From IMG/VR virus record IMGVR_UViG_2537561977_000024: a stretch of 37,316 nt of DNA. The stretch is one strand, 5' to 3'. This stretch comes from a virus (lineage: Duplodnaviria > Heunggongvirae > Uroviricota > Caudoviricetes). A model generated the notes under the pieces. The model had not been told where the DNA came from and searched no databases. It saw only the letters and a program-made list of their open reading frames with translations. Below are positions 2,856 to 28,917 of the stretch, in pieces (the stretch's first letter is position 1; every line of letters starts with the position of its first letter). The position numbers and the translations under genes are program-made.

Positions 2856-3074
2856 TCAAAGAGAGAGCGCCACCTGTCCTGATTTCATTGGATGCGGCTG
2901 AACCGGATTTGACTCTTTTGGCGTTGCAATCGAACGAACAAAAGTTTCATGGGTAACAAAAGTATGGCTGCAGTTAATGTTCTGGCACTGGTTGTAACGC
3001 TCTTTGGTCAATGAAGATACCTGAAAACTGCTGCGAGTATGGGCGGCACTTCCACACAGTGGGCAAATCATCAT
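2856..3074 (-). CDS. ogr: Ogr-family zinc-finger late transcription activator
   Basis: CPLC...HxR...CxNxxC pattern like P2 Ogr / 186 B; start set at internal Met by comparison with the ~72-aa Ogr. Confidence 0.85.
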   Translation of the reverse strand: MMICPLCGSAAHTRSSFQVSSLTKERYNQCQNINCSHTFVTHETFVRSIATPKESNPVQPHPMKSGQVALSL

Positions 3075-3164
3075 TTTTCGAGTTCTCCCCATTTTTGCTA
3101 AATTCACAATAATGATACCGCATTATTCCATTTTGCAAACTTAAAAGTTCTCCATTGCGAAGAA

Positions 3165-4265
3165 TCATTCCATTTCGAAATCATCAATCCTCACTTCAAG
3201 CTCCAGACTGGTTGTAAAACCGTTATCGGGGCTGACGGTATGCGTCAGAGTCGTAATGGTCCATTCCGCATCATCTATCGGCTGTTTAAAGCCACTGACT
3301 TTCACTGGCATTTCCGTGTAGAGATCTGCCCGACCTTCAGCCAGTTGTAGCGAGAATGACGCAACGCCGCGTTGCAGGCGTTCCCACTGCATTTTCGCCG
3401 CCCGTTCGGCGTTGCTCCGGTTGGCATAGGTGCGATTAAGTACCAGCACGTTTTCATCTGTACCCACCAGGTAATCGCCCTGCTTCGCTTCCGGCTCTTT
3501 CTTCTGCTTCTTAGTCCTGCGCTTACGCTTCACCGTGGTGCTTTCATTCTTCGCGGGTTCGCGGGTATGCAACCAGCTGGCAATTACGCCCGTGTAGGCT
3601 CCGCGATCTGCCAGGGTAAAGCGGTGACTGTCGCCGTCCTTACGTGTGATAGTGATAACCGGTAGTGGTTTACCGCTGGCGCTTTTACTCTGTCCCTGCC
3701 GGATGAATAACAGATTGCCATTTTTCACCGACGCAATAGCACCGTACTGGCGCGCCAGCCGCATCAGAAAACTGCCGTCACTCTCATTGGTCTGGTCTAT
3801 ATGTTCCACGGGTTTATCTGACAGGTCTTTACCCAATGCCATCTTCAGTTTGTGCCGCACAGCTATTTCCTTCACCACTTCCCCGACGGTGGTCTTGTGC
3901 CACGACTTTTCACGGCGGGTATTCAGCGTTTCACGAAAATCAGCACTTCGCGCCCGGATAGTCAGGCGGTCCGGTGCGCCAGTGTGTTCAATCTCGTCCA
4001 CCGTGAATGCCCCTTTCGGGAAAAGCGGCTGCCCCTTCCAGCCCAGCGCCAGCGTAATAACCGCACCACGGCGCGGCAGCACGATTTTTCCGTCGGCGTC
4101 GTCCAGCTCCAGATCAAGCTGGTCCGCTTCAAAGCCCCGATTGTCCGTCAGCGTCAAACTCATCAGGCGGTTATCCAGCACAGTGGTGATATCCCTGCCC
4201 TCAATACTGATGCTGAATGCGGGAGTTTTGTTGCCTTTGTTAAGCAGTTCAGAGCTGAAATTCAT
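3165..4265 (-). CDS. D: P2 gpD-like tail protein
   Basis: 366-aa ORF in conserved position and order; length like P2 D. Confidence 0.85.
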   Translation of the reverse strand: MNFSSELLNKGNKTPAFSISIEGRDITTVLDNRLMSLTLTDNRGFEADQLDLELDDADGKIVLPRRGAVITLALGWKGQPLFPKGAFTVDEIEHTGAPDRLTIRARSADFRETLNTRREKSWHKTTVGEVVKEIAVRHKLKMALGKDLSDKPVEHIDQTNESDGSFLMRLARQYGAIASVKNGNLLFIRQGQSKSASGKPLPVITITRKDGDSHRFTLADRGAYTGVIASWLHTREPAKNESTTVKRKRRTKKQKKEPEAKQGDYLVGTDENVLVLNRTYANRSNAERAAKMQWERLQRGVASFSLQLAEGRADLYTEMPVKVSGFKQPIDDAEWTITTLTHTVSPDNGFTTSLELEVRIDDFEME

Positions 4266-15157: not shown

Positions 15158-15503
15158 TCTCTGCTCCTGTTGATACGGAAAGGGAAACAGGCACACCGTT
15201 ATTACGCCGCCCGGTCAGCCCCACCACCATTGAACCGTCAAAATTGCTTTTAATGGTGATGGAATCCAGCGTCAGCCGTGGCTCCCAGCGACTCAGCGCC
15301 ACATACACTGCCGACATGACCTGCAGGCGTAATGCCGGATTTTGTGGCTGGTCTATCAGTGTCGACAGCAGGGAACCATATTCACGACGGGCAATGCGGC
15401 AACCCTGCGGTGTCAGTAGAATGTCCCGCACCGACTGACGCAGATGGTCAATATCAGTAATGGCTTTACCGCTGGTATTGTTCATCCCGATATAAAGCGT
15501 CAT
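15144..15503 (-). CDS. W: baseplate wedge protein W
   Basis: 119-aa ORF, motif REYGSLL..IDQPQ like P2 gpW. Confidence 0.85.
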   Translation of the reverse strand: MTLYIGMNNTSGKAITDIDHLRQSVRDILLTPQGCRIARREYGSLLSTLIDQPQNPALRLQVMSAVYVALSRWEPRLTLDSITIKSNFDGSMVVGLTGRRNNGVPVSLSVSTGAENGSD

Positions 15504-16078
15504 ACCGGGCCTCCGGTTGTATCGCCGCCTTTCAGGACGCCAGTATGCTGATGCGCATCAACCACGATCCCGTTAGAACTCATCGCTCCGCCGCCCTGGG
15601 TAACGCCACCATTGATCACCACTTCGCTGTTAATGCGCGTGCGGTCAGCCTCCAGTACAAACTCACTGGTTTTCATGGTGATGTTGTCAGCGGCCTCAAT
15701 GACCATTGATTTGATGCCCCTGACATACCAGCGCCCGGTGGCGGGTTCGTATTCAAACCAGCCACCGTCAGGATGTTCTGTCACGCAGGCGTCCGCCGAC
15801 GTCGACGGTGGTGCGAACTGATTCGAATAGACAGCGGGCAGCGCAAAGGCGGTTTCCAGATTGCCGCCCAGACTCAGCAGCACCACCTGCTCACCTTCCG
15901 ATGGTCGCCACCATGTGCGGGCATTCCCGGCACGCAGCGTCAGCCAGCTGATCCAGTTGGTTTCAAGCTCGCCCGTTTTCACCCGGCAAAGCCAGTTTTC
16001 CCTGTCCACTTCGGTGACTACCCCAGTGCGGATCAGGTTGGTGATAAGGCGCATGATTTCGGTTAATTGTGCGTTCAT
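15500..16078 (-). CDS. V: baseplate spike protein V
   Basis: 192-aa ORF with P2 gpV-like N-terminus and TWWxPSxGEQV motif. Confidence 0.85.
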   Translation of the reverse strand: MNAQLTEIMRLITNLIRTGVVTEVDRENWLCRVKTGELETNWISWLTLRAGNARTWWRPSEGEQVVLLSLGGNLETAFALPAVYSNQFAPPSTSADACVTEHPDGGWFEYEPATGRWYVRGIKSMVIEAADNITMKTSEFVLEADRTRINSEVVINGGVTQGGGAMSSNGIVVDAHQHTGVLKGGDTTGGPV

Positions 16079-16124
16079 AGGGAAAGGTTGCCATCAGGGG
16101 AAGAAAGGCGGCAGTGCTGCAACT

Positions 16125-16142
16125 TGTATCAGTGCTGATACA
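16125..16142. promoter_or_regulatory. TGT-N12-ACA late-promoter activator site (PV-like)
   Basis: Perfect dyad TGTATCAGTGCTGATACA in the S-V intergenic gap. Confidence 0.5.
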
Positions 16143-16146
16143 AAGA

Positions 16147-16593
16147 TCACCCCGCCAGCCATTGCAGAATCATGTCGCTGGTCATTGCCTCAACATCATC
16201 ATTTACACCCAGCAGGCGGCGCTCTGCGTAACGGACCTCCGGTCCTTTGCGACTGACGCGATCACGCAGGCCGTAATGGTGAACACGGGCAATACGCTGC
16301 ACCTTGCCTTCAAACTGTACGCTGGCAGAGTCGGCGCTGGCGGCAGTTTTCAGGTATTTTGTGGTGCGCAGCTTTGCAAACATCTGACGTTTGATGCGGC
16401 CTTTTTTGCTGCGTGCTGTTACCCTGCGCGGTTCATAACTGCTGCCATCTGGATTGCGCTGCATCCTGATATTCTGCTGCTGTGTCCGGCGCAGTTCCTG
16501 CGCCAGCTGGCGCATCATGCGGCTTCTCGTGGCTGGTTCCAGATTCGCCAGCAAGGCACTCAGCCAGTCGTCCACCTTCTGCAGTTCAGCCAC
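16147..16593 (-). CDS. S: tail completion protein S
   Basis: 148-aa ORF; synteny and length like P2 S. Confidence 0.8.
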   Translation of the reverse strand: MAELQKVDDWLSALLANLEPATRSRMMRQLAQELRRTQQQNIRMQRNPDGSSYEPRRVTARSKKGRIKRQMFAKLRTTKYLKTAASADSASVQFEGKVQRIARVHHYGLRDRVSRKGPEVRYAERRLLGVNDDVEAMTSDMILQWLAG

Positions 16594-17038
16594 GTTTCAC
16601 CGTCCACATTTCTTCAGGTTCATCGGGTTCTGCTACAGCTTCAACGCTCGACACACTGCCGTCAGTACTGACCAGCACACGTTCCGTCAGTTGCAGGTTA
16701 AGGCTGATATCACAGACATCGTTGCGCAAAATATCCACCTCAAAGGTGAATAGCTTTTCCCGTAACGCCGGGTTATTGATGGCATCGGGCTGGTTATCCC
16801 GAAGCCACAGTAAAACCGGGGCCATCAGCAGATTCTGGTCGCCGCTGAAATCCTCTATCACCACGTTCAGGGTATAGCGGTACTCCCATGACATGGAGCT
16901 GGCCCCCGTGGCAACCAGCGAACCGTTATCCACAAACAGATGCAGTTTGTCCGGGTTATTGCGGACATAAGGCACCGCTTTATTGAGGGCGTGGCGCAGG
17001 GATTGTGGTTTATTCACTGTTTCGCTCCTGACACGCAA
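16586..17038 (-). CDS. R: tail completion protein R
   Basis: 150-aa ORF; synteny and length like P2 R. Confidence 0.8.
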   Translation of the reverse strand: MRVRSETVNKPQSLRHALNKAVPYVRNNPDKLHLFVDNGSLVATGASSMSWEYRYTLNVVIEDFSGDQNLLMAPVLLWLRDNQPDAINNPALREKLFTFEVDILRNDVCDISLNLQLTERVLVSTDGSVSSVEAVAEPDEPEEMWTVKRG

Positions 17039-17270
17039 TAATCATGTCCACTTTGTCTGCACAGACCGCCCAGGCGGCCTCCGTTTCATCCAGCAACGCG
17101 TTCAGGTCACCGTTAGTGCGCGGCGCTGCCTGCCCCAGCCGACACGGCGTCACTCGCGGACAACCACTGACGGTAAGCTGCACCTCGGGTGAGTGTGGGG
17201 CGTTCCCGCAACCGGATAATGTCAGCAGGCAAAGGAGTATCAGCCCAGCGGCGTAAATCCTCGTTCTCAC
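17010..17270 (-). CDS. lysC: Rz1-like outer-membrane spanin lipoprotein (LysC)
   Basis: Signal peptide ending in lipobox LSGC; overlaps lysB 3' end in another frame. Confidence 0.65.
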   Translation of the reverse strand: MRTRIYAAGLILLCLLTLSGCGNAPHSPEVQLTVSGCPRVTPCRLGQAAPRTNGDLNALLDETEAAWAVCADKVDMIIACQERNSE

Positions 17271-17541
17271 GTTTCAGTTCCTCAATCCGGTGTTGTCGTT
17301 GTCTCAGCAGTACACTGGTCTGTTCTGCTTCGGCATAGAGCCGCGCCTGCTCCCGGTTATTGGTTTCAGTCAGAATGGACAGGCTGATAAGCTGGCTGTT
17401 GCTCTTTGCCAGTGCCTGGCTTTTGCTCCGAAGCTCGTCTGCCTGCGTGCTGATGGTCTGGCTGGCATCAGCCAGCCGCCACGTCTGCCAGCCCAGCGCC
17501 GCCAGTAATAACGCCAGCACAACCAGCAGCAACCGGTTCAT
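17113..17541 (-). CDS. lysB: Rz-like inner-membrane spanin (LysB)
   Basis: N-terminal TM helix then coiled-coil region; position after lysA. Confidence 0.7.
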   Translation of the reverse strand: MNRLLLVVLALLLAALGWQTWRLADASQTISTQADELRSKSQALAKSNSQLISLSILTETNNREQARLYAEAEQTSVLLRQRQHRIEELKRENEDLRRWADTPLPADIIRLRERPTLTRGAAYRQWLSASDAVSAGAGSAAH

Positions 17542-17915
17542 GCTGCTACCTGTTGCGCCATCTGATTACGGATCATCCAGAAGGCAATAACGGTCAGCAG
17601 ATAAAAGACCAGGGTAATAGCCCACCCCGTCCAGGCGAAACTTACGACAATCAGCAATCGCATCACCCAGCTGATAAATACGTTTTCTTTTCGGGTAATG
17701 GTCTTCAGCAAAGATGCCCTCAACTCCTGCCAGAGCGGGCCGTTCTTAATTAACGCAGCCAGTGCTACCGGAATTACCGCCCATGTCAGCAGACAGGCTA
17801 CCCAGACACCGGACGCTGCCAGTACCGGAAAAATCCCCTGTGGATACACCATTGCTGCGATCAACAGCGCCATCCATAACATCAGAAACAGCCCGCTGAT
17901 TACTTTCTTTTTCAT
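17538..17915 (-). CDS. lysA: LysA-like multi-pass membrane lysis regulator
   Basis: Start set at MKKKV with GGGAG SD 9 nt upstream, 1 nt after K stop; ORF track extends it to 17987. Confidence 0.6.
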   Translation of the reverse strand: MKKKVISGLFLMLWMALLIAAMVYPQGIFPVLAASGVWVACLLTWAVIPVALAALIKNGPLWQELRASLLKTITRKENVFISWVMRLLIVVSFAWTGWAITLVFYLLTVIAFWMIRNQMAQQVAA

Positions 17916-17916
17916 T

Positions 17917-18429
17917 TCAGTTTGCTCCCTGTAAGCACCAGGCCATCTCCCGCGCACGGCGGTTATCCAGCCCCTGATTAAAAACACCTTTCACATAAAC
18001 CCAGCGCGGCAACTGTCGGCACGCATCCGCCCAGCGCCGCTGATTGAGTAATTTCACCAGTGTGGAACTGCAGGCATTGCCCGTTCCCACGTTGAAGGCA
18101 AACGACACCGCAGCGTCATACACCTTCTGCGGCGGCTGTTGCTTCACACACCTTTCCAGCGCCCGCTCCACACGCAGCACGTTGGAGATCAGCCCTTCTG
18201 CTGCCTGTCGCTCCGTAATGGTTTTGCCGGGAATGACGCCCGACGTATTACCAATGCCGTCGGTCCAGACACCCGCGCTGCACTGATACGGCTGCAGACG
18301 ACAGCCTTCGTAATCAGCAATCAGTTTCAGCCCCTCCACGGAGGAGTGAAGCTGCTGAAAACCCGGCAGCGTGGCAGCAATAGCCAGCACGGCCCCGACA
18401 AGGCAGCGTTTAACGATTGATGGATTCAT
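17917..18429 (-). CDS. K: lysozyme-type endolysin with N-terminal SAR (signal-anchor-release) segment
   Basis: T4-lysozyme-like motifs (EG..L.AY, NVGTGN) preceded by weakly hydrophobic N-terminal helix, like P21 R. Confidence 0.85.
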   Translation of the reverse strand: MNPSIVKRCLVGAVLAIAATLPGFQQLHSSVEGLKLIADYEGCRLQPYQCSAGVWTDGIGNTSGVIPGKTITERQAAEGLISNVLRVERALERCVKQQPPQKVYDAAVSFAFNVGTGNACSSTLVKLLNQRRWADACRQLPRWVYVKGVFNQGLDNRRAREMAWCLQGAN

Positions 18430-18625
18430 AGTCCTCCCGCGAGATCTGCCCGTCGCGCAGAAGCTGGTAGGCTTTGTGTTTGTAGTACCAGTTGATAGCC
18501 AGCATCAGTACACCAATCATCAGGCCGCCCAGCGTTGAGGCATCCTTGATGGACAAATCGCCCAGCCAGGCCAGCACGACGGCGATGCAATACGTGATAA
18601 AGGCGCTGATTCGCTCAAGCGTCAT
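18410..18625 (-). CDS. Y: holin (pinholin-like, two TM helices)
   Basis: 71-aa ORF with two hydrophobic helices and charged C-terminus immediately upstream of endolysin. Confidence 0.7.
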   Translation of the reverse strand: MTLERISAFITYCIAVVLAWLGDLSIKDASTLGGLMIGVLMLAINWYYKHKAYQLLRDGQISREDYESINR

Positions 18626-18628
18626 AAT

Positions 18629-18832
18629 TCAGTCCCATAGCTGGACGGTCTGCACGGTGGTGGTTGTCAGAATGTCCGGCAGCTCCACCTGCAGCCCGTG
18701 AGGTAAAAAGGGGCCGTATTCGGCAAGCCCCGGATTTGCCTTCAGTACCTGCTCCGTGACACCCTGCGTGCGCCCGTAATGACGCCAGCAAAGCGCGTCC
18801 ACCGTGTCATACTGATGCGCACGCACTTTCAT
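18629..18832 (-). CDS. X: tail protein X
   Basis: 67-aa ORF, same size and position as P2 gpX. Confidence 0.8.
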   Translation of the reverse strand: MKVRAHQYDTVDALCWRHYGRTQGVTEQVLKANPGLAEYGPFLPHGLQVELPDILTTTTVQTVQLWD

Positions 18833-19296
18833 CAGATAAGCTCCACTGTGCAGTGCGGCGCATCCTGCACCCGGCTGATGGCCCAGCGGGCGTCACGCCA
18901 CAAATCACCGCTTGCTTCCGCCAGTTCCTCGCCCCGCTTCACACCGGACGCCGTGGCGTCATAGTCCTGATAACGCTCGTTGAGCATGGCGCGTGCCCAG
19001 CAGTAAACCGCGTTGAAATAGTGCTGAATGCGCTCACTTTTCCCGTCCAGCAGTTCCGCCGGAACCTCAGCCAGCGACGCATACCCCAGCATCTGCTGAC
19101 GTCTGCGAAACTCATACAACTCAGCGTTGACCTCCGAAATTGCCGACAGGGCAACCTGCTTTAAACGCGGCTGCGTCACCGTGCCGTCAGTGCGCATGAC
19201 ACTGCGAAACTCCGACAGGTCCACATCAGGCCAGAACGGCGTATTTCTGATGATTTCCGCCTGTTCCGGTGCCTGTTCTGGCGCAACAAACTTCAT
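18832..19296 (-). CDS. L: capsid completion protein L
   Basis: Start set at MKFVAPEQ with AGGAGA SD; C-terminal WRD.RWA..R.Q motif like P2 gpL. Confidence 0.8.
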   Translation of the reverse strand: MKFVAPEQAPEQAEIIRNTPFWPDVDLSEFRSVMRTDGTVTQPRLKQVALSAISEVNAELYEFRRRQQMLGYASLAEVPAELLDGKSERIQHYFNAVYCWARAMLNERYQDYDATASGVKRGEELAEASGDLWRDARWAISRVQDAPHCTVELI

Positions 19297-19391
19297 GCTG
19301 CTTTCTCCTGAAATAGAGGGCGGTGGACGGGGTTTTGATGTGGCAGTGCCTTTCGCCACCCCGTGCCGCCTGTGCGCGGGGGCACGTTCTG

Positions 19392-20042
19392 TCAGCGGCT
19401 GTCATTGCGCAGTCTGCGCTCCAGCTGCTGTTTGTCTTTTTTCACGCCACAGCGGGGATCGAGCTGTAACGCATGGTTGAGATGATTAAGGGCGGAAGCC
19501 GGGTTGCTTTCACTCAGGACAGCGCCAATCGCTTTATGCAGACGCGCCCGTGACTGGTCCGGCATATCCAGACCGTCTGTCAGCTCCAGCGTCTGCAGCA
19601 ACAGATCGGCATCAAAGCCGGTGGCGGCAAGCATTGCGCTCTGCGCGGCGTCTGCCATTTCCTCTGCCAGCACGGTCTGCACGTTGCGGTTACCCAGCGG
19701 CATCACCCAGCCATGACGCAGGGCATGACGCCCAATCTCCAGCGCCCCGGCATAATCTCCGGCATCAATGCGCCACAGCATCACGTACATCAGCACGTCA
19801 TCCTGTTGAGCGCCTCCGGCAGCCAGGACGCCCTCCGCCCAGGCGGCATATTTCGGCAGCAGCTCCACCTTGATTTCCGCTTTTTTCACCGTGGACTGAA
19901 CGCCCTTGAGACGGCGGCGGTCTTCCGCCAGTTGCAGCAGCATCAGGTCATAGCCCGACGCGTGGCGAACACTGCCGCCCTCGCGGGCGGCCTGTTCAGC
20001 CTGAACACGCAGGCGATGCTGCCGTGCGGGACTCAGGCTCAT
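19392..20042 (-). CDS. M: terminase endonuclease (small) subunit M
   Basis: 216-aa ORF; synteny between N and L. Confidence 0.8.
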   Translation of the reverse strand: MSLSPARQHRLRVQAEQAAREGGSVRHASGYDLMLLQLAEDRRRLKGVQSTVKKAEIKVELLPKYAAWAEGVLAAGGAQQDDVLMYVMLWRIDAGDYAGALEIGRHALRHGWVMPLGNRNVQTVLAEEMADAAQSAMLAATGFDADLLLQTLELTDGLDMPDQSRARLHKAIGAVLSESNPASALNHLNHALQLDPRCGVKKDKQQLERRLRNDSR

Positions 20043-20045
20043 GGA

Positions 20046-21104
20046 TTACGCTCCGGTTTCTGCTGCGGCGGCGCTGAAGTCGCCAATCTGGATGTTTTCC
20101 ACCAGTGCGGCGCAGCGGTAGTCCTCAACCACATAGGCTTCGTTAACGGATTCAAAATTTTCAATCCGGTCACGTTTCGGGTTGTCGATAACTGAACGGC
20201 GGCGGGTATCTTCCTGCCAGTAGATGGACAGGTTATCCAGACGGGTGATCAGCAGCGCATTCGGCGGGAAGAACGGCGCACGCACGGCCTGCAGGCCCCC
20301 CATGCGCTTCTGACTGATGATCATATCGGCAGCCAGTTTTTCACTGTTTTCCTGCTCTTTGTTGACCAGCGGGAAATACTTGTCAGACAGCAGTTCACGG
20401 CCGCAAATCACCACCAGATCGTCATCGTCCTGGTAGACCACGTCGATAAGCTCATTGACGGCATCCATCACCACGGCGTCCAGGTTGGCATATTCGCCAC
20501 CTTTCCCGACTTTCACCGCGCCCGGTGTGGTTTCACCGCCCGTGGTGGTGCTGCCCATGACATGATCCGGTGCATCCTCACGGATTTTCTGCAGCCAGCC
20601 TTTGTTCACATCCTGCAGCAGCGGGTTTTCACTACGGTTGGAGGTTTTCGCACGCTTCAAGCCGTTAAAGCCGATCATGATGCGGTCCAGTGCCTGACGT
20701 TTCACGATGGCGTCACGGATACGCACCTGGAAATCCTGAAACTTCGCCCACAGGTCCAGCTTCGCGTAGGTCAGCACCGTGTCAAAGTTGGTCTGCTCGC
20801 ATTTATATTCCACATCGACCATCAGCGTCGGATCGACAGGTTCACGCTCTTTCGCGGTGGTGTCAGTGGTTCCGGCAATGGTGCTGCCAACACCCAGCCC
20901 CAGCAGCTGACCGGACTGCTCAGTCACTGGCGTGACGTTAATCAGCGTCAGGAAAGCGGCGGACTGCTGGATCTGGTCTTCCAGCGTCTGCTGCACAGAC
21001 GGCTCCACAGTGAATTTGCTGGACAGTTCTTCAACTGCCACACCGTTCAGACGCGCCAGCTGCTGCAGGTAAGCGTTAAAAGCAAAGCGGGTATTCTTCT
21101 TCAT
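20046..21104 (-). CDS. N: major capsid protein N
   Basis: 352-aa ORF; length and position like P2 gpN. Confidence 0.9.
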   Translation of the reverse strand: MKKNTRFAFNAYLQQLARLNGVAVEELSSKFTVEPSVQQTLEDQIQQSAAFLTLINVTPVTEQSGQLLGLGVGSTIAGTTDTTAKEREPVDPTLMVDVEYKCEQTNFDTVLTYAKLDLWAKFQDFQVRIRDAIVKRQALDRIMIGFNGLKRAKTSNRSENPLLQDVNKGWLQKIREDAPDHVMGSTTTGGETTPGAVKVGKGGEYANLDAVVMDAVNELIDVVYQDDDDLVVICGRELLSDKYFPLVNKEQENSEKLAADMIISQKRMGGLQAVRAPFFPPNALLITRLDNLSIYWQEDTRRRSVIDNPKRDRIENFESVNEAYVVEDYRCAALVENIQIGDFSAAAAETGA

Positions 21105-21120
21105 CGGGTTTTGTGCTCCA

Positions 21121-21953
21121 TCAGCAATTGGTCAGAGTGTCAGCGGGGGCGTTACCGCCTGTTGCACGCTGGCGGTAGTCCTGGCGGCTGTCTTCATGAC
21201 TCAGCTTGTCCACCAGTTCGTTAAAGGCGGTTTGCTGTGCCTGCAGGGCAGTCTCCAGCTCAGACAGGCGTTCTTCCTGCTCAGACAGGGATTTTTCGGT
21301 GCGTGCGCTCAGATTCTGCTGCTCAGTGGCGACCAGCTCCACGGCCTTATGCACATCAGAGAACCGGGCGTCATCGGACTGCTCTTTTTGGTAAACAGCG
21401 CCGTGACGCGGGCAAACAGGGACGGTTTGTCGTCCTGGATTTCTTCCAGTTCGATCACCGTTTCCTCTGCAGCGGTAAAGAGATTGGCAGGATTCTGCTT
21501 GCGGTTTGCCAGCGGGTTATGGGCTGCACTGGCGCTGAATGTCAGCATTTCCGTACCCAGACTGGCAGGGTCATCAGTGGCAGCCAGGCCGACCAGGTAG
21601 GCTTTGCCCGTATCAGCGAACTTCGGGCTGACTTCCATAGAGGTGAATAATTTCTGGCCTTTTTTCACCAGTTCCACCAGGGACTCCGTTGGCTCAACGT
21701 CGGCATACAGCGCCATCTTGCCTGCCAGCGGACCTTCCGTGATTTCTTCAGCAAACAGCGCCGTCACCTTGCCGTAGCGGTTAAAGGTGCTGTCCGGCAG
21801 ATAAGACTTGATGTGCTCAAGGTTAATCAGCGCGGTATACACCGCCGGGTTGTAGCTGGCTGCCATCTGTTCCAGCCATTCACGCTGGATTTCGCGTCCG
21901 TCGGTGGTGGCACCTTCCACCCCGATGCGAAAACGCTTTGCTTTCACTGTCAT
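21121..21953 (-). pseudogene. O: capsid scaffold gene O interrupted by a single-base frameshift
   Basis: Two ORF pieces (21309..21953 and 21121..21354) in different frames; joining at the A5 run 21385-21389 restores a ~278-aa gpO-like protein. Confidence 0.75.
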
Positions 21954-22031
21954 GAGCCGTGCTCCGTTAGAAAAAACTTACTGGAGCCTTATGGTTGCGG
22001 TGATGGGGGCAGTGAAACAATGCGCGGTATT

Positions 22032-22049
22032 TGTACCGACAACCACACA
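22032..22049. promoter_or_regulatory. TGT-N12-ACA late-promoter activator site in divergent O/P region
   Basis: TGTACCGACAACCACACA, close in sequence to the site upstream of FI. Confidence 0.5.
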
Positions 22050-22095
22050 AACCGCAGGCGGGGAAAGCCTTCATTCAAGGCTGTAGGTTTGTGCC

Positions 22096-23862
22096 ATGAA
22101 CACCACACTGACACCCGCAGATCTCGATCCCCGTCGGCAGGCCATGCTGCTGTACTTTCAGGGATACCGCGTCGCCCGCATTGCTGAAATGCTGGGCGAG
22201 AAAGTTGCAACCGTTCACAGCTGGAAAAAACGCGACAAGTGGGGTGACTATGGGCCGCTGGATCAGATGCAGCTCACCACCGCCGCACGCTACTGCCAGC
22301 TCATCATGAAGGAGCACAAAGAAGGGAAAGATTTCAAAGAGATTGACCTGCTGGCGCGCCAGTCTGAGCGCCACGCGCGGATCGGCAAGTTTAACAATGG
22401 CGGCAACGAAGCCGACTTAAACCCTAACGTCGCCAACCGCAACAAAGGCCCACGCCGTCAGCCTGAAAAGAATGTTTTCACCGATGAACAGATTGAGAAG
22501 CTGGAAGAAATCTTCCATTCCTCCATGTTCAACTACCAGCGCCACTGGTGGGAAGCCGGAAAAACCAACCGCATCCGCAACCTGCTGAAGTCACGCCAGA
22601 TCGGCGCGACCTTCTATTTTGCCCGTGAAGCCCTGATTGACGCCCTGCTGACCGGACGTAACCAGATTTTCCTTTCCGCCAGTAAGGCACAGGCCCACGT
22701 CTTTAAGCAGTACATCATCGACTTTGCCAAAGAAGTGGAGGTGGAGCTGAAAGGCGATCCGATGGTGCTTCCTAACGGGGCCACGCTTTACTTCCTCGGC
22801 ACCAATGCCCGCACTGCCCAGAGTTACCACGGCAACCTGTATCTGGATGAATATTTCTGGATACCAAAATTCCAGGAACTGCGCAAAGTGGCTTCCGGTA
22901 TGGCTATTCACAAGAAATGGCGACAGACCTATTTTTCCACGCCATCCAGCCTGACACACAGTGCTTATCCGTTCTGGTCCGGTGCACTGTTCAACCGTGG
23001 GCGCAACAAAGCCGATAAGGTGGACATCGACCTGTCCCACAGCAATCTGGCCCCCGGCCTGCTGTGCGCAGACGGGCAATACCGCCAGATAGTCACCGTG
23101 GAAGATGCGGTGCGCGGCGGCTGTAACCTGTTCGACCTCGACCAGCTACGCATGGAGTACAGCCCGGACGAATACCAGAACCTGCTGATGTGCGAGTTTG
23201 TGGACGATCTCGCGTCCGTGTTTCCGCTCAGCGAGCTGCAGGCGTGCATGGTGGACAGTTGGGAAGTCTGGACCGACTTTCATGCACTGGCGCTGCGCCC
23301 GTTTGGCTGGCGCGAAGTGTGGATCGGTTATGACCCGGCAAAAGGTACGCAAAACGGCGACAGCGCCGGATGCGTGGTGGTGGCACCGCCAGCCGTGCCG
23401 GGTGGTAAGTTCCGCATTCTTGAGCGTCACCAGTGGCGCGGGATGGACTTCCGCGCCCAGGCTGACGCCATCAAAAAACTTACCGAACAGTACAACGTGA
23501 CTTATATCGGTATCGACTCAACCGGCGTTGGTCACGGGGTTTACGAGAACGTGAAAGCGTTCTTTCCTGCCGTCCGGGAGTTTGTCTACAACCCCAACGT
23601 TAAAAACGCCCTGGTACTCAAGGCCTACGACATTATCAGCCACCGCCGTCTGGAGTTTGACGCCGGACACACCGACATTGCGCAGTCATTTATGGCAATC
23701 CGTCGCGCCACCACCGCCAGTGGCAACCGCCCGACCTATGAAGCCAGCCGCAGCGAAGAAGCCAGCCACGCCGATCTGGCATGGGCAACGATGCACGCAC
23801 TGTTTAACGAACCGCTGCAGGGCGAATCCGCCAATACCAGCAATATTGTGGAGATTTTTTGA
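22096..23862 (+). CDS. P: terminase large (ATPase) subunit P
   Basis: 588-aa ORF beginning MNTTLTPADLDPRRQAMLLYFQGYRVA like P2 gpP. Confidence 0.9.
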   Translation: MNTTLTPADLDPRRQAMLLYFQGYRVARIAEMLGEKVATVHSWKKRDKWGDYGPLDQMQLTTAARYCQLIMKEHKEGKDFKEIDLLARQSERHARIGKFNNGGNEADLNPNVANRNKGPRRQPEKNVFTDEQIEKLEEIFHSSMFNYQRHWWEAGKTNRIRNLLKSRQIGATFYFAREALIDALLTGRNQIFLSASKAQAHVFKQYIIDFAKEVEVELKGDPMVLPNGATLYFLGTNARTAQSYHGNLYLDEYFWIPKFQELRKVASGMAIHKKWRQTYFSTPSSLTHSAYPFWSGALFNRGRNKADKVDIDLSHSNLAPGLLCADGQYRQIVTVEDAVRGGCNLFDLDQLRMEYSPDEYQNLLMCEFVDDLASVFPLSELQACMVDSWEVWTDFHALALRPFGWREVWIGYDPAKGTQNGDSAGCVVVAPPAVPGGKFRILERHQWRGMDFRAQADAIKKLTEQYNVTYIGIDSTGVGHGVYENVKAFFPAVREFVYNPNVKNALVLKAYDIISHRRLEFDAGHTDIAQSFMAIRRATTASGNRPTYEASRSEEASHADLAWATMHALFNEPLQGESANTSNIVEIF

Positions 23863-24933: not shown

Positions 24934-25674
24934 TTACTCAATAGGTTCAAACTCATCTTGAGGAATCAGCGTCGATTGACAGGCTTGGCTTAGTACCCCT
25001 GATAATTTACATAATAACCGATAGTTATGAGGAGCATCATCGCTAATCTTTTCGACCGTTAAAGTGATTGATTTTGGATCATCCAATAACATCTTCTTGA
25101 TGTCATTACTTAAATACCTAGGGCAGTAACCAACGATTTCAGCTGGTTTATCTGCACGAACGACAACAGCATCCCCATCGTATTCATTTTGAAGATCCAA
25201 GCAAAGACGCAAAATTTGCCCCGGTTTCAATTCAGATACACGAGCATTAGCTAAGCTATTCAAGTAACCAAGTCCATGTAAGAAGAAAAAATGCTCAAAG
25301 TTACCATCAGAATCAAAATCAATTTTTTTGAAAATCTGCAGCTGATCAGTGCTTCGTAAGCCTCCCGAGCGAGCAAGAATATCGATAGGATTTACCTTAT
25401 CTTCTTCAAATCCAAGCCATTTAATGAAACTCGGATACTCTGGACGTCTCGGTGATAAAAGGCGATTTTTAAAAAGAGGAAACAATTCTTCCGATACATA
25501 AGTTTCACGAACATCACTCATGCCGCTAAACTTTGTAAATTTAGAAGATTTAAGAGCACCTTTGGTATACCTGAAAACATACCCCGATTTGCGCTCTTGC
25601 AAGTTACCAACAACATGCCAGTCTCTGGTATCTGGTGCCTGCCATGCGACGTAAACGGAGTTTGTATTAGTCAT
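24934..25674 (-). CDS. HipS-like N-domain fused to C-terminal HIRAN-like domain
   Basis: N-terminal VGNL..FRY...LFPLFKNRLLSP resembles HipA N-subdomain; C-terminal LRLCLDLQNEYDGDAVVVRA...VGYCPRYLS..IKKMLL fits HIRAN consensus; start overlaps kinase stop (ATGA). Confidence 0.6.
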   Translation of the reverse strand: MTNTNSVYVAWQAPDTRDWHVVGNLQERKSGYVFRYTKGALKSSKFTKFSGMSDVRETYVSEELFPLFKNRLLSPRRPEYPSFIKWLGFEEDKVNPIDILARSGGLRSTDQLQIFKKIDFDSDGNFEHFFFLHGLGYLNSLANARVSELKPGQILRLCLDLQNEYDGDAVVVRADKPAEIVGYCPRYLSNDIKKMLLDDPKSITLTVEKISDDAPHNYRLLCKLSGVLSQACQSTLIPQDEFEPIE

Positions 25675-26585
25675 TCTAGTAACCTTCTGCGATTTTCCAT
25701 TACCATTAACGTTGCAAATCTACGTGCACTGTCGGATATACACGATGAAGGCACTTGGTTAAACACATCTGTAATGGAATCTTCTGTTAAAACGCTCAAC
25801 TTACCTAACCAATGGTCGCGAGCGGCAACTCTCCCTTCAACTGCATGTTGAAATGCTTCAACAGTCAGCAAGGGCTTTTTATCAGTTTTTGCTTTGAATA
25901 GCTCAGAGCGAGCTTTTCTTACAAAACATGGGATTTGTCGATTTTTATCTTTAGTATTAAGCCGTTCGTTACGCTCATCATCTAACATCTCCCTTCCTAA
26001 ACTAGCGGCATGATCGTATGTTGGACACAAAAACTGCTCACCAGTTTCATTGTTAAGCATGATTGCCCAATTTTCATGGTGGCGATCTTGATTACTCACA
26101 AGTGCATCGAGCATCAAATATCCACAAAATACATCTGCTGCATTTAGCCCGGTTAGATCATATACACTCGGAGGAGGCTTGATAGATTCCCTATCTAAAC
26201 AACCCAAGACCCTTGTGACAGTGTGTTCTCTGACCCTTACCGGCTTTTCCCCGGCTTGTAAAGGCCCAGGATAATCGAATGTCGAACTGTGAAGCACTTC
26301 ATTTCCCATTACCATCCGGAAACCAGATGGAATGATATTCTGAGTCACCACACCGAATCGACCATTGTATCGCGCCAAATCATAGCTAGCATGTGGAATG
26401 TTAAGCAAATGACATAACTCAGCAGCACACTTTTCAGACCAATGCTCGCCAGTACCTGGCCTAGAGTACTTAAACAACTGCAAATTTACAGTGTCATCGG
26501 AGAAATAGAACCAAAACTTCTCTTTGGTTCCTAACTGTTCAAGATCGTTAGCTACGGGGCTAAGCTCTACCAATTGGTATGGCAT
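25671..26585 (-). CDS. HipA-family Ser/Thr kinase core (HipT-like, lacks HipA N-subdomain)
   Basis: Gly-rich loop LGTKEKF at residues 18-24, catalytic VSNQDRHHENW (D167), PTYDHAAS (D191), with HipA-like spacing. Confidence 0.7.
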   Translation of the reverse strand: MPYQLVELSPVANDLEQLGTKEKFWFYFSDDTVNLQLFKYSRPGTGEHWSEKCAAELCHLLNIPHASYDLARYNGRFGVVTQNIIPSGFRMVMGNEVLHSSTFDYPGPLQAGEKPVRVREHTVTRVLGCLDRESIKPPPSVYDLTGLNAADVFCGYLMLDALVSNQDRHHENWAIMLNNETGEQFLCPTYDHAASLGREMLDDERNERLNTKDKNRQIPCFVRKARSELFKAKTDKKPLLTVEAFQHAVEGRVAARDHWLGKLSVLTEDSITDVFNQVPSSCISDSARRFATLMVMENRRRLLE

Positions 26586-27623: not shown

Positions 27624-28917
27624 CTGAGGGATCCCCAGAAAATTTAGTAAACCATTATCATATTGGTATACCGTTGCTGTAGAACTTTCAGCCCTGCGTC
27701 AAGTGACAGTGTGTTTAGTATGAGTGGAGAATGTCGAATCACATTCTCCGCCAGTTTTAATAACGAGATGACTCGCCTGTGCTTCACTGTATTTGCCTGA
27801 TATTTATGATGTATCCCTTTGTTTTCCAGGCTGAAACCGCTTAACCACATAATGATACTGGCTAATGTTGCGATCAGACTCAATACCGTGACCCGCCCGG
27901 ATGAATGACTGGCACCAAACCGTAGTCCAAATCCCCAGCGAGGATTTTTTTCATCCCTGAAATTTTGCTCAATTTGCATTCTACGGCTGTATAATTTCAT
28001 TACCTGTTTTGGCGAGAACTCAGTACTGTTTGTGAAAATAAACCATGGTGATTTCCCGGCAGTACGAGCTTTAGCCGTCACCGATGGTCTGGTTGCTCTT
28101 TCCTTCGAGCGTTTAAATCTACGACCTTTAGGCTTACTTTTATAAAGATAAAAATGCCCTTCATGTTGTGCATTTTTATCTCGACCCAGCAGGCCTTCAC
28201 CTAAATAAATTGCTGTCGTTGATGCTTTTGTGCCTGAGTCCGACACCTTTTCCCAGCCATTACCAACATTGTAATAATGATTGCCCAGTACCCGGCAAAT
28301 ATAGGTCCAGCCACGGGAGCGGAGCTGTTGGAACCATCGCCCCTGAAAACCGGCATCTGTAATAACAATGACATCAGTCCCGGGGGAAAAGCACTCAGCA
28401 AGCGATTCCAGAAAACGCTCATGTACATCTGCATTCGCTGTCTGTGATGATGGAACGACACAACTCATCAACGGTAAAGAACGCCCGTCACATGCCAGGC
28501 TTGCCCGCAAAAGCTGAAAACGAGAGGCATGATAAGCACTCCAGTCAATGAGTATCACAACACGAGACATTCCCCGCGTAATCTTTTGGGTAATTCGCTG
28601 AAAAATGGTGGAAACCTCATTTTGCAAATGTCGATTCCCCAACAGTCGATCCACCCGCTTTATTTTGTTTTTAACTGATGCCGTACCGGTTAAATGACGC
28701 CCGATACTGGTAAGTGTGAGGGAAGCGCCATTTATTACAGCATTAGTTGCGTCAATCAGTGATTTTTGACGGTAAAGATGCAAAGGGGCCAGTATGTTGT
28801 TAAGGAAATTTTGGCATAATGAACGTGCAGGCATAGTGGTGATCTCCTTGAAATTGTTAGCACAATCAATTAGATCACATCTCACTATGCCTGTCTTGTT
28901 TTCTGGGGATTCCTCAG
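27624..28917. mobile_element. IS10-like insertion sequence (IS4 family)
   Basis: Terminal inverted repeats CTGAGGGATCCCCAGAAAA / CTGAGGAATCCCCAGAAAA; flanked by direct repeat GGCTAGCCC (27615-27623 and 28919-28927). Confidence 0.8.
27644..28834 (-). CDS. IS10-type DDE transposase
   Basis: Motifs KRVDRLLGNRHL, TDAGF, YSRRMQIEQNFRDEK align with IS10 transposase as recalled; start set at MPARS. Confidence 0.85.
   Translation of the reverse strand: MPARSLCQNFLNNILAPLHLYRQKSLIDATNAVINGASLTLTSIGRHLTGTASVKNKIKRVDRLLGNRHLQNEVSTIFQRITQKITRGMSRVVILIDWSAYHASRFQLLRASLACDGRSLPLMSCVVPSSQTANADVHERFLESLAECFSPGTDVIVITDAGFQGRWFQQLRSRGWTYICRVLGNHYYNVGNGWEKVSDSGTKASTTAIYLGEGLLGRDKNAQHEGHFYLYKSKPKGRRFKRSKERATRPSVTAKARTAGKSPWFIFTNSTEFSPKQVMKLYSRRMQIEQNFRDEKNPRWGFGLRFGASHSSGRVTVLSLIATLASIIMWLSGFSLENKGIHHKYQANTVKHRRVISLLKLAENVIRHSPLILNTLSLDAGLKVLQQRYTNMIMVY

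Follow-up and report, generated by a model that had tools for sequence, protein, structure and literature searches.

The question raised by this locus is by which route an infected cell is opened, as two overlapping genes of a lysis cassette had been read in a preliminary description as a signal-anchor-release (SAR)-type endolysin paired with a small, pinholin-like holin of two helices, with LysA, Rz-like and embedded Rz1-like genes behind them. The window, by which we mean the whole stretch of DNA analysed (37,316 nucleotides), possesses in the interval 17917–18625 two minus-strand ORFs, and these are the ones described before, a 71-aa holin upstream of a 170-aa endolysin. The two ORFs share a mutual overlap of 20 nt, and the ATG of lysA is placed 1 nt past the endolysin stop. 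The gene structure, the family memberships, the conservation of motifs and the gene order given below were all observed directly, and the cassette is made up of the following genes:

18410–18625, minus strand: holin, 71 aa, ATG start
17917–18429, minus strand: endolysin, 170 aa, ATG start
17538–17915, minus strand: LysA, 125 aa, ATG start
17113–17541, minus strand: LysB (i-spanin, Rz-like), 142 aa
17010–17270, minus strand: LysC (o-spanin, Rz1-like lipoprotein), 86 aa, GTG start

On the same strand, the cassette is preceded at its 5′ side by the genes for the major capsid protein N, the terminase M, the head completion protein L (PF05926) and the tail protein X (PF05489), and is followed, 3′ of lysC, by the tail completion genes R (PF06891) and S. 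The late-operon order seen here, X-hol-lys-lysA-lysB-lysC-R-S, is the order found in the P2 and Fels-2 records. Because a CI-type repressor and an integrase are encoded at the right end of the window and a host permease gene is located at its left end, the window was recognised as an integrated P2-family prophage. The cassette forms the lysis module of its late operon, the prophage being a Fels-2-like member of the P2 family (Peduoviridae) resident in E. coli. Scanning of positions 15400–22200 revealed three promoter-like sites, a number equal to the chance expectation (mean 3.0), and 12 terminator-like sites, about twice the shuffled mean of 5.9 and all of them weak (3–4 G-C pairs); this outcome fits a single late operon. 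No tRNA or tmRNA was found in the window by ARAGORN, and the ssrA-adjacent setting of the closest record in the phage collection therefore does not apply here.

Matches to the 1.9-kb cassette were detected in 1039 of 5426 complete E. coli genomes (about one in five), 775 of the matching genomes possessing at least 80% of its length. Most of these matches are 95–99% identical to the query, with the best reaching 99.7%, and the names given by PGAP to the genes in the E. coli copies are ‘HP1 family phage holin’, ‘lysozyme’, ‘DNZ54_00345 family protein’, LysB and LysC. Furthermore, the cassette is present in 33 phage records at 96–98% identity, including vB_EcoM-813R9, Klebsiella phage KP12 (clone 3) and 4LV2017, and diverged versions of it occur in Fels-2 and SopEΦ. 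The arrangement is already known from the paper on KP12 (PMC9902359), from the record of phage Midge and from experiments with HP1 (PMC7312051), and represents an ordinary lysis module. To judge by the strong family match obtained for every one of them, the lysis genes are not chance ORFs.

The endolysin matched PF00959, the profile of the GH24 phage lysozyme domain, with 137.3 bits against a cut-off of 22.3 (E 4.6e-40). Its best solved relative was the SAR endolysin Lyz of P1 (1XJT, E 7.5e-26, aligned from residue 13; 1XJU, 9e-25), and the SAR endolysin R21 (3HDE/3HDF; E 1e-17 for 3HDE) was also among the top solved relatives. Sequence identities of 36.6% with the P1-type Lyz and of 62% with the ‘SAR endolysin’ of phage Midge are observed. 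No similarity with the P2 endolysin K was seen (E 0.18), and the search against NCBIfam yielded only matches to GTA/SpmX lysozymes, far below the threshold. An AlphaFold2 model obtained from 17 close relatives had a mean pLDDT of 43 and was unusable, the alignment being too shallow and consisting of near-identical homologues only. The argument that follows concerns two parts of the protein:

18346–18429, minus strand: N-terminal extension, residues 1–28, delimited with relatives aligned on the catalytic Glu
18262–18309, minus strand: catalytic and regulatory motif E41-G-C43-x6-C50-x5-T56, placed by sequence and by alignment to 1XJT

The globular domain carries E41-G-C43-RLQPYQ-C50-SAGVW-T56, in which the triad pattern E-x8-(D/C)-x5-T is present with Cys in the middle (E41, C50 and T56), and this triad aligns to the EGC...C...WT motif of P1 Lyz. 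The catalytic triad of P1 Lyz consists of Glu42, Cys51 and Thr57, and E41, C43, C50 and T56 of the endolysin are the equivalents of E42, C44, C51 and T57 of Lyz. Cys44 of Lyz cages Cys51 in the membrane-tethered form of the enzyme, and once the enzyme has been released the cage is resolved by Cys13, which lies in the SAR domain and is the counterpart of C9 in the present protein. The likeness to P1 Lyz comprises the GH24 fold family, basic residues at the N-terminus ahead of an uncharged hydrophobic stretch that contains one Cys, the E-x-C-x6-C-x5-T motif and approx. 37% identity across the catalytic domain; in contrast to Lyz, the endolysin has no counterpart of the insertion of about 12 aa near residue 117. 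With P1 Lyz as the best solved relative, and with its regulatory cysteines and catalytic triad reproduced, the earlier assignment to the SAR type gained ground, and the prediction of a SAR-type GH24 muramidase of the P1 Lyz subtype is supported.

The endolysin starts with M-N-P-S-I-V-K7-R8-C9-LVGAVLAIAATL-P22-G23-F24-QQLHSS, after which the globular domain begins. Its extension is composed of the basic pair K7-R8, Cys9 (codon 18403–18405), the hydrophobic core C9–L21 and then P22-G23-F24. The weakly hydrophobic segment formerly noticed in front of the lysozyme domain, RCLVGAVLAIAATLPGF (residues 8–24), was recovered by hydropathy as one short N-terminal span. Since cytoplasmic relatives devoid of the extension start at the equivalent of S29/S30, with sequences such as ‘M-K-I-S-x-x-G-I-x-L-I-K-x-F-E-G-C’, residues 1–28 are considered to be an add-on module.

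Compared with P1 Lyz, the anchor is shorter and less rich in Gly/Ala: the uncharged stretch after K7-R8 has 19 residues (9–27) versus 24 in Lyz and 24 in R21, and the fraction of Gly/Ala/Ser/Thr (GAST) in the N-terminal segment is 0.37 versus 0.50 in Lyz and 0.62 in R21. The anchor Cys is positioned at +1 from the basic pair here, and at +9 in Lyz. The hydrophobic core comprises 13–16 aa and is ended by Pro22-Gly23. With the values of the Hessa scale, the sums for the endolysin were −1.30 (13-mer), +1.35 (16-mer) and +5.52 (best 19-mer), and the references, compared over 19-mers only, gave +0.46 (P1 Lyz) and +0.78 (R21). Hydropathy of the segment is equivocal, as it would be weakly anchoring like a SAR domain and yet is short enough for the h-region of a signal peptide; basic residues and a charge-free segment are there, though in a shorter and weaker form than in validated SAR endolysins.

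A clearer indication comes from the cysteines. R8, C9 and C50 are invariant in 17 relatives of 79–98% identity, and C43 is present in 16 of the 17. For a wider comparison, representatives of 50%-identity clusters were used, and anchored N-termini accompanied by a catalytic Cys were counted (n = 15 distinct). The caging Cys at E+2 was found in all 15 distinct anchored relatives versus 18 of 37 without the extension (Fisher p = 3e-4), and each of the 15 has exactly one Cys located 1–7 residues past the last N-terminal basic residue. This conserved Cys sits in the cytoplasm-proximal half of the anchor, the remainder of which is unconserved in the 15 relatives. Because the N-terminal Cys and the caging Cys co-occur in every anchored relative, the N-terminus is likely to be retained rather than cleaved. 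Conservation of Cys9 speaks against a signal peptide, because a residue that is to be discarded need not be conserved or co-vary with a Cys adjacent to the active site; it argues for an uncleaved N-terminus, i.e. for a SAR segment with disulfide switching.

These considerations presuppose that translation begins at the upstream ATG. If the internal GTG were the start instead (157/158 aa), as in the public annotations of Fels-2 and vB_EcoM-813R9, the product would be a cytoplasmic enzyme let out by a canonical holin, an explanation to which we give hardly any credence. The internal GTG is preceded only by a weak GGGG, whereas GGGAGG is found 3 nt before the ATG; the 13 codons upstream of the GTG, including those for K-R-C, are kept in relatives down to approx. 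55% identity, Midge included, and are also open and conserved 5′ of the annotated endolysin start of Fels-2; moreover, a product started at the GTG would open mid-way through the hydrophobic stretch. With GGGAGG in front of it and 13 conserved codons behind it, the upstream ATG is considered to be the real start. Another possible explanation, which accepts this start, is that the segment serves as a normal Sec signal peptide and is cleaved off, the enzyme then being a soluble periplasmic lysozyme under some other control. The basic n-region, the 13-aa h-region and the Pro-Gly helix breaker behind it would suit such a peptide, and by composition alone the segment is like a signal-peptide h-region; A16-I17-A18↓A19 and L27-H28-S29↓S30 are compatible with the −3/−1 rule; the N-terminus of the homologous HP1 Lys is a signal peptide according to SignalP (PMC7312051); and a precedent exists in T4 RI, the supposed SAR domain of which turned out to be misassigned (PMC8385771). 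We nevertheless hold cleavage to be improbable, as Cys9 would be located in the discarded part and yet is invariant in N-termini that are otherwise unconserved, and the oxidised enzyme would remain caged without it. Furthermore, the internal A-I-A motif is also found in P1 Lyz, where a fusion of the SAR domain to PhoA was cleaved inefficiently and released mainly as the uncleaved precursor (PMC8385771), and in relatives the −1 equivalent of the only candidate site behind the core, L27-H28-S29↓S30, is occupied by T, I or V, so that no site is conserved. It should be noted that the −3/−1 scan was made by hand, is too weak to decide on cleavage and served only to show that the site is not conserved. 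A prediction of a soluble helix would not discriminate against the SAR type either, because the released SAR domain of P1 Lyz joins the soluble fold. Very unlikely, in our opinion, is also a mechanism in which the short anchor, a 13-aa core right after K-R-C and ended by Pro, acts as a transient, signal-peptide-like segment and not as a bilayer-spanning SAR helix, the C43–C50 cage being the main restraint and LysA, as a releasin or anti-releasin, governing release or activation in place of depolarisation alone. The uncharged anchor stretch of phage Midge has only 14 residues, and if such a short-anchor subfamily were unlike P1 Lyz, the sequence features that define SAR domains would be refined; nothing seen requires this. 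The retained, disulfide-switched SAR anchor is accordingly the reading kept in what follows.

The second component, the holin, was matched to PF16080 (HP1 holin family) with 36.7 bits against a cut-off of 28.8, over profile positions 3–54 of 56, and to phrog_20 (holin; E 1.9e-26); no NCBIfam model matched it. Two hydrophobic spans (residues 6–22 and 29–48) were seen by hydropathy, followed by K49/K51 and a C-terminal tail of mixed charge, and from the positive-inside rule the topology would be N-in/C-in (class II). The gene has a single start codon and no dual-start antiholin motif. Phage Cartapus encodes the same protein (100% identity), and the copies of Fels-2, SopEPhi and RE2010 share 80% identity with the present holin. 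Its alignment with HP1 Hol by BLASTP was insignificant (E 0.64), the link being made via the Pfam profile only, and the E value of 0.003 with the P2 holin Y, obtained in a 15-sequence subject set, is not taken as similarity. By BLASTP no alignment was produced with S21 (the S21 sequence used being 100% identical to the phage 21 record), and the score to PF04971, the P21 holin S family, was 23.2 bits, under the cut-off of 26. For the first transmembrane domain (TMD1) of the holin, the Hessa scale gave −0.56 over 17 aa at a GAST fraction of 0.35, versus +8.55 over 22 aa and 0.55 for TMD1 of S21; TMD1 of the holin is more hydrophobic than TMD2 and is not a weakly hydrophobic, releasable (SAR-like) TMD1. 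The pinholin-like character proposed earlier for the 71-aa protein was hence confirmed as to its two spans, to which the HP1 holin family can be added, but not as to the P21 S family threshold or an S21-like TMD1. A weakly hydrophobic TMD1 is a trait of the S21 mechanism and is not necessarily shared by all pinholins.

Experiments have established HP1 Hol, the type protein of PF16080, as a pinholin that is lethal without lysis or leakage of beta-galactosidase, is needed for phage release and has a Sec-dependent SAR endolysin as its partner (PMC7312051). From membership in this family we infer that the present holin is a pinholin. It could also be that the endolysin is of the SAR type and the 71-aa protein a canonical large-hole holin, or that timing and release are effected mainly via LysA, which we find unlikely, albeit worth serious consideration. 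In P1 the partners of the SAR endolysin include, besides a pinholin, two canonical holins, LydA and LydC (PMC9025707), in Mu the release of the SAR protein can depend on a membrane protein that is not a holin (PMC9239132), TMD1 of the holin is strongly hydrophobic, unlike that of S21, and the holin scores below the threshold of the S21 family. The pinholin is nevertheless favoured by the assignment to the same Pfam family as HP1 Hol, a protein that was lethal to cells with neither lysis nor leakage of beta-galactosidase, by the small class II architecture and by the repeated occurrence, seen in HP1, APSE-3, Midge and Fels-2, of an HP1-family holin together with a SAR-type lysozyme. An HP1-type holin with a Lyz-type Cys-SAR lysozyme is an old and recurrent module in Peduoviridae.

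HP1, also a member of Peduoviridae, shares with the present locus the PF16080 holin, the order of holin then lysozyme, the overlap of the two genes and the missing dual-start motif, and HP1 Lys has KK, Cys11 in an uncharged N-terminal stretch of 16 residues and E-G-C-x6-C; the endolysins are, however, only 34% identical, and HP1 is without LysA and has a different late-gene context. P1 differs in gene arrangement, with LydA and LydB genes unlinked to lyz and LydD in the lyz operon, whereas here the endolysin lies beside its holin in a P2-type cassette. Phage 21 resembles the locus in having a 71-aa class II holin with two TMDs directly 5′ of a GH24 SAR endolysin, with a spanin pair after them; in contrast, R21 has Asp in place of Cys and no cysteine of regulatory function, S21 combines a dual start with a weakly hydrophobic TMD1, and the spanins of phage 21 are embedded, whereas those described here are overlapped. 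The cassette of phage Midge is related, with an endolysin 62% and a holin 29% identical, and is annotated in its record as ‘holin class II / SAR endolysin / putative antiholin / i-spanin / o-spanin’. Closest are the Felsduovirus-like cassettes of Fels-2, SopEPhi, Cartapus and KP12 clone 3, with the same genes in the same order, holins 80–100% and endolysins 91–99% identical and allelic differences only. In the paper on KP12, the approx. 97%-identical KP12.peg.316-320 are presented as a cassette of the P2 type whose spanins are of the overlapped class, and KP12.peg.319 as a predicted Lyz-like SAR endolysin with a TM-score of 0.83 to 1XJT (PMC9902359).

The remaining genes of the cassette are those of the P2 type. 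LysA has four hydrophobic spans by hydropathy and matched NF038378 (126 bits) and phrog_162 (E 4.3e-43), with PF28015 (LysA) matching on fused homologues, and a natural allele exists in which endolysin and LysA form one protein of 296 aa; LysA is only weakly similar to P2 LysA (E 0.017) and occupies the same slot in the operon. Its homologue in Midge is annotated as ‘putative antiholin’, and in the Fels-2 reference record, which also has the endolysin start annotated internally, LysA is split into two small ORFs. We regard LysA as a putative lysis-timing, antiholin-like membrane protein. LysB matched the TIGR03495 equivalog (167.7 bits, above 92.75) and phrog_89, shares 33% identity with P2 LysB and is an i-spanin with an N-terminal TMD (residues 4–20) and a periplasmic domain. 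LysC matched the NF038368 equivalog (123.2 bits) and PF23793, shares 44% identity with P2 LysC and is an o-spanin with the lipobox L18-S19-G20-C21 and Gly at +2. The lysC gene is in the +1 frame, preceded by GAGGA 8 nt upstream of its start, with 158 nt within lysB and 103 nt past the lysB stop, and its last 8 nt are shared with the start of gene R. LysA and an Rz/Rz1-like pair thus do follow the endolysin, as the preliminary description had it, but LysC is overlapped and not embedded in the manner of lambda. The ‘overlapped’ class of spanins was defined for P2 (PMC6139136), and the two-component spanin found here is of this P2-type architecture. With P2 the locus further shares the position of the cassette between X and R, the LysB and LysC proteins and a LysA-like protein; in contrast to P2, the places of the holin Y (93 aa) and the endolysin K are taken here by an HP1-type holin unrelated to Y and by a Lyz-type SAR lysozyme.

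Taken as a whole, we think it probable, with good confidence, that the cassette works by the SAR-endolysin pathway together with the holin, LysA and the spanin. By homology to P1 Lyz, HP1 Hol/Lys and P2, from which we draw the membrane tether, the absence of cleavage, the isomerisation of the disulfide, the size of the pinholes and the role of LysA, lysis would proceed as follows. The 170-aa lysozyme would be exported by Sec and, its N-terminal segment not being cleaved, would stay attached to the inner membrane by this segment, with K7-R8 in the cytoplasm and C9–F24 in the bilayer, and would be kept inactive by a disulfide that locks the catalytic Cys50 to Cys43. The 71-aa class II holin of the HP1 family would meanwhile build up until it triggers and depolarises the membrane, probably via small pinholes, with LysA as a four-helix membrane protein modulating the timing. 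Upon depolarisation, the weak anchor would exit the bilayer, and the thiol of Cys9 may then attack the cage and form C9–C43; Cys50, thus freed, would complete the E41/C50/T56 active site, and the wall would be degraded. In the last step, the LysB/LysC spanin would disrupt the outer membrane.

Beyond the arrangement already known, we add the explicit Lyz-type cysteine logic predicted for C9/C43/C50, its co-occurrence in 15 of 15 relatives and the unusually short anchor of the subfamily. The significance of this is small beyond the quality of annotations. In practical terms, several public records mis-start the endolysin and thereby drop the basic residues and Cys9, and in two phage records LysC is annotated in a truncated form with its lipobox lost; because of these mis-starts and truncations, the export signals that define the mechanism are hidden. 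For the P2 family, the cassette represents a textbook swap of modules in the lysis region, in which Y/K were exchanged and LysA/B/C were kept.

A fused allele, in which the endolysin and LysA form one protein of 296 aa, is present in many public assemblies. A single fusion cluster (P0012) alone accounts for 48 blocks indexed in the contig collection, from which 24 contigs were read, and there are dozens of further singleton clusters, complete genomes among them. The allele is represented by the following feature:

L010 (a fusion-bearing locus), 3001-3891: endolysin-LysA fusion, 296 aa

The fusion originates from the deletion of one G from CCTGGTG close to the 3' end of the endolysin gene (equivalent to approx. 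17938-17940 in the window), a frameshift by which the final seven endolysin residues, including Cys165, are lost and reading continues into lysA. The remainder of the cassette appears intact in these assemblies, and the product is predicted to be a permanently tethered lysozyme.

Among the representative endolysin homologues (P0163-P0262), the E-x-C-x6-C cysteine pair was also found in approximately half of the cytoplasmic GH24 relatives devoid of the N-terminal extension; possession of the 'caging' Cys thus does not set exported enzymes apart, and this residue may be older than the acquisition of the SAR anchor.

Outside the lysis cassette, the P2 accessory-gene hotspot adjoining the portal gene is occupied by a candidate two-gene anti-phage system, PDC-M03, assigned by sequence similarity, which is itself adjoined by a transposase-domain ORF, probably an insertion sequence within the prophage:

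24934-26585, minus strand (within): PDC-M03 gene A, 304 aa, HipA_C-like (PDLC04344, E 2e-122)
24934-26585, minus strand (within): PDC-M03 gene B, 246 aa, HIRAN domain (PDLC04347, E 7e-93)
27644-28885, minus strand: transposase-domain ORF (DDE_Tnp_1, E 2e-20)

Within the phage collection, the record nearest to the window (CP019275.1, 37.4 kb) is labelled as an E. coli 'plasmid'. It carries the chromosomal genes recN, bamE, smpB and ssrA along with many frameshifted genes, so that the label is probably wrong and the contig a piece of chromosome or prophage. Unlike this ssrA-bearing record, the window contains no tmRNA gene, and its flank also differs, with a permease at 935-2620.

LysA (17538-17915, minus strand) is named 'endolysin' both by PHROG 162 and by the P2 RefSeq record. 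The protein, however, is a membrane protein with four helices in its hydropathy profile and lacks an enzymatic domain (the Pfam search gave no match); the label is an annotation carry-over. In the Fels-2 record, LysA is divided into two ORFs and LysC is annotated as a longer protein, while in the records of 813R9 and KP12 LysC is given as 56-57 aa, with neither signal peptide nor lipobox. The endolysin starts at an internal GTG in the public records of Fels-2 (NC_010463; 2730-3206 of locus L006) and 813R9 (2518-2991 of locus L001), which removes residues M1-G12/A13 and hence K7, R8 and Cys9. Export signals are thus masked in public records by the mis-assigned starts of both endolysin and LysC.
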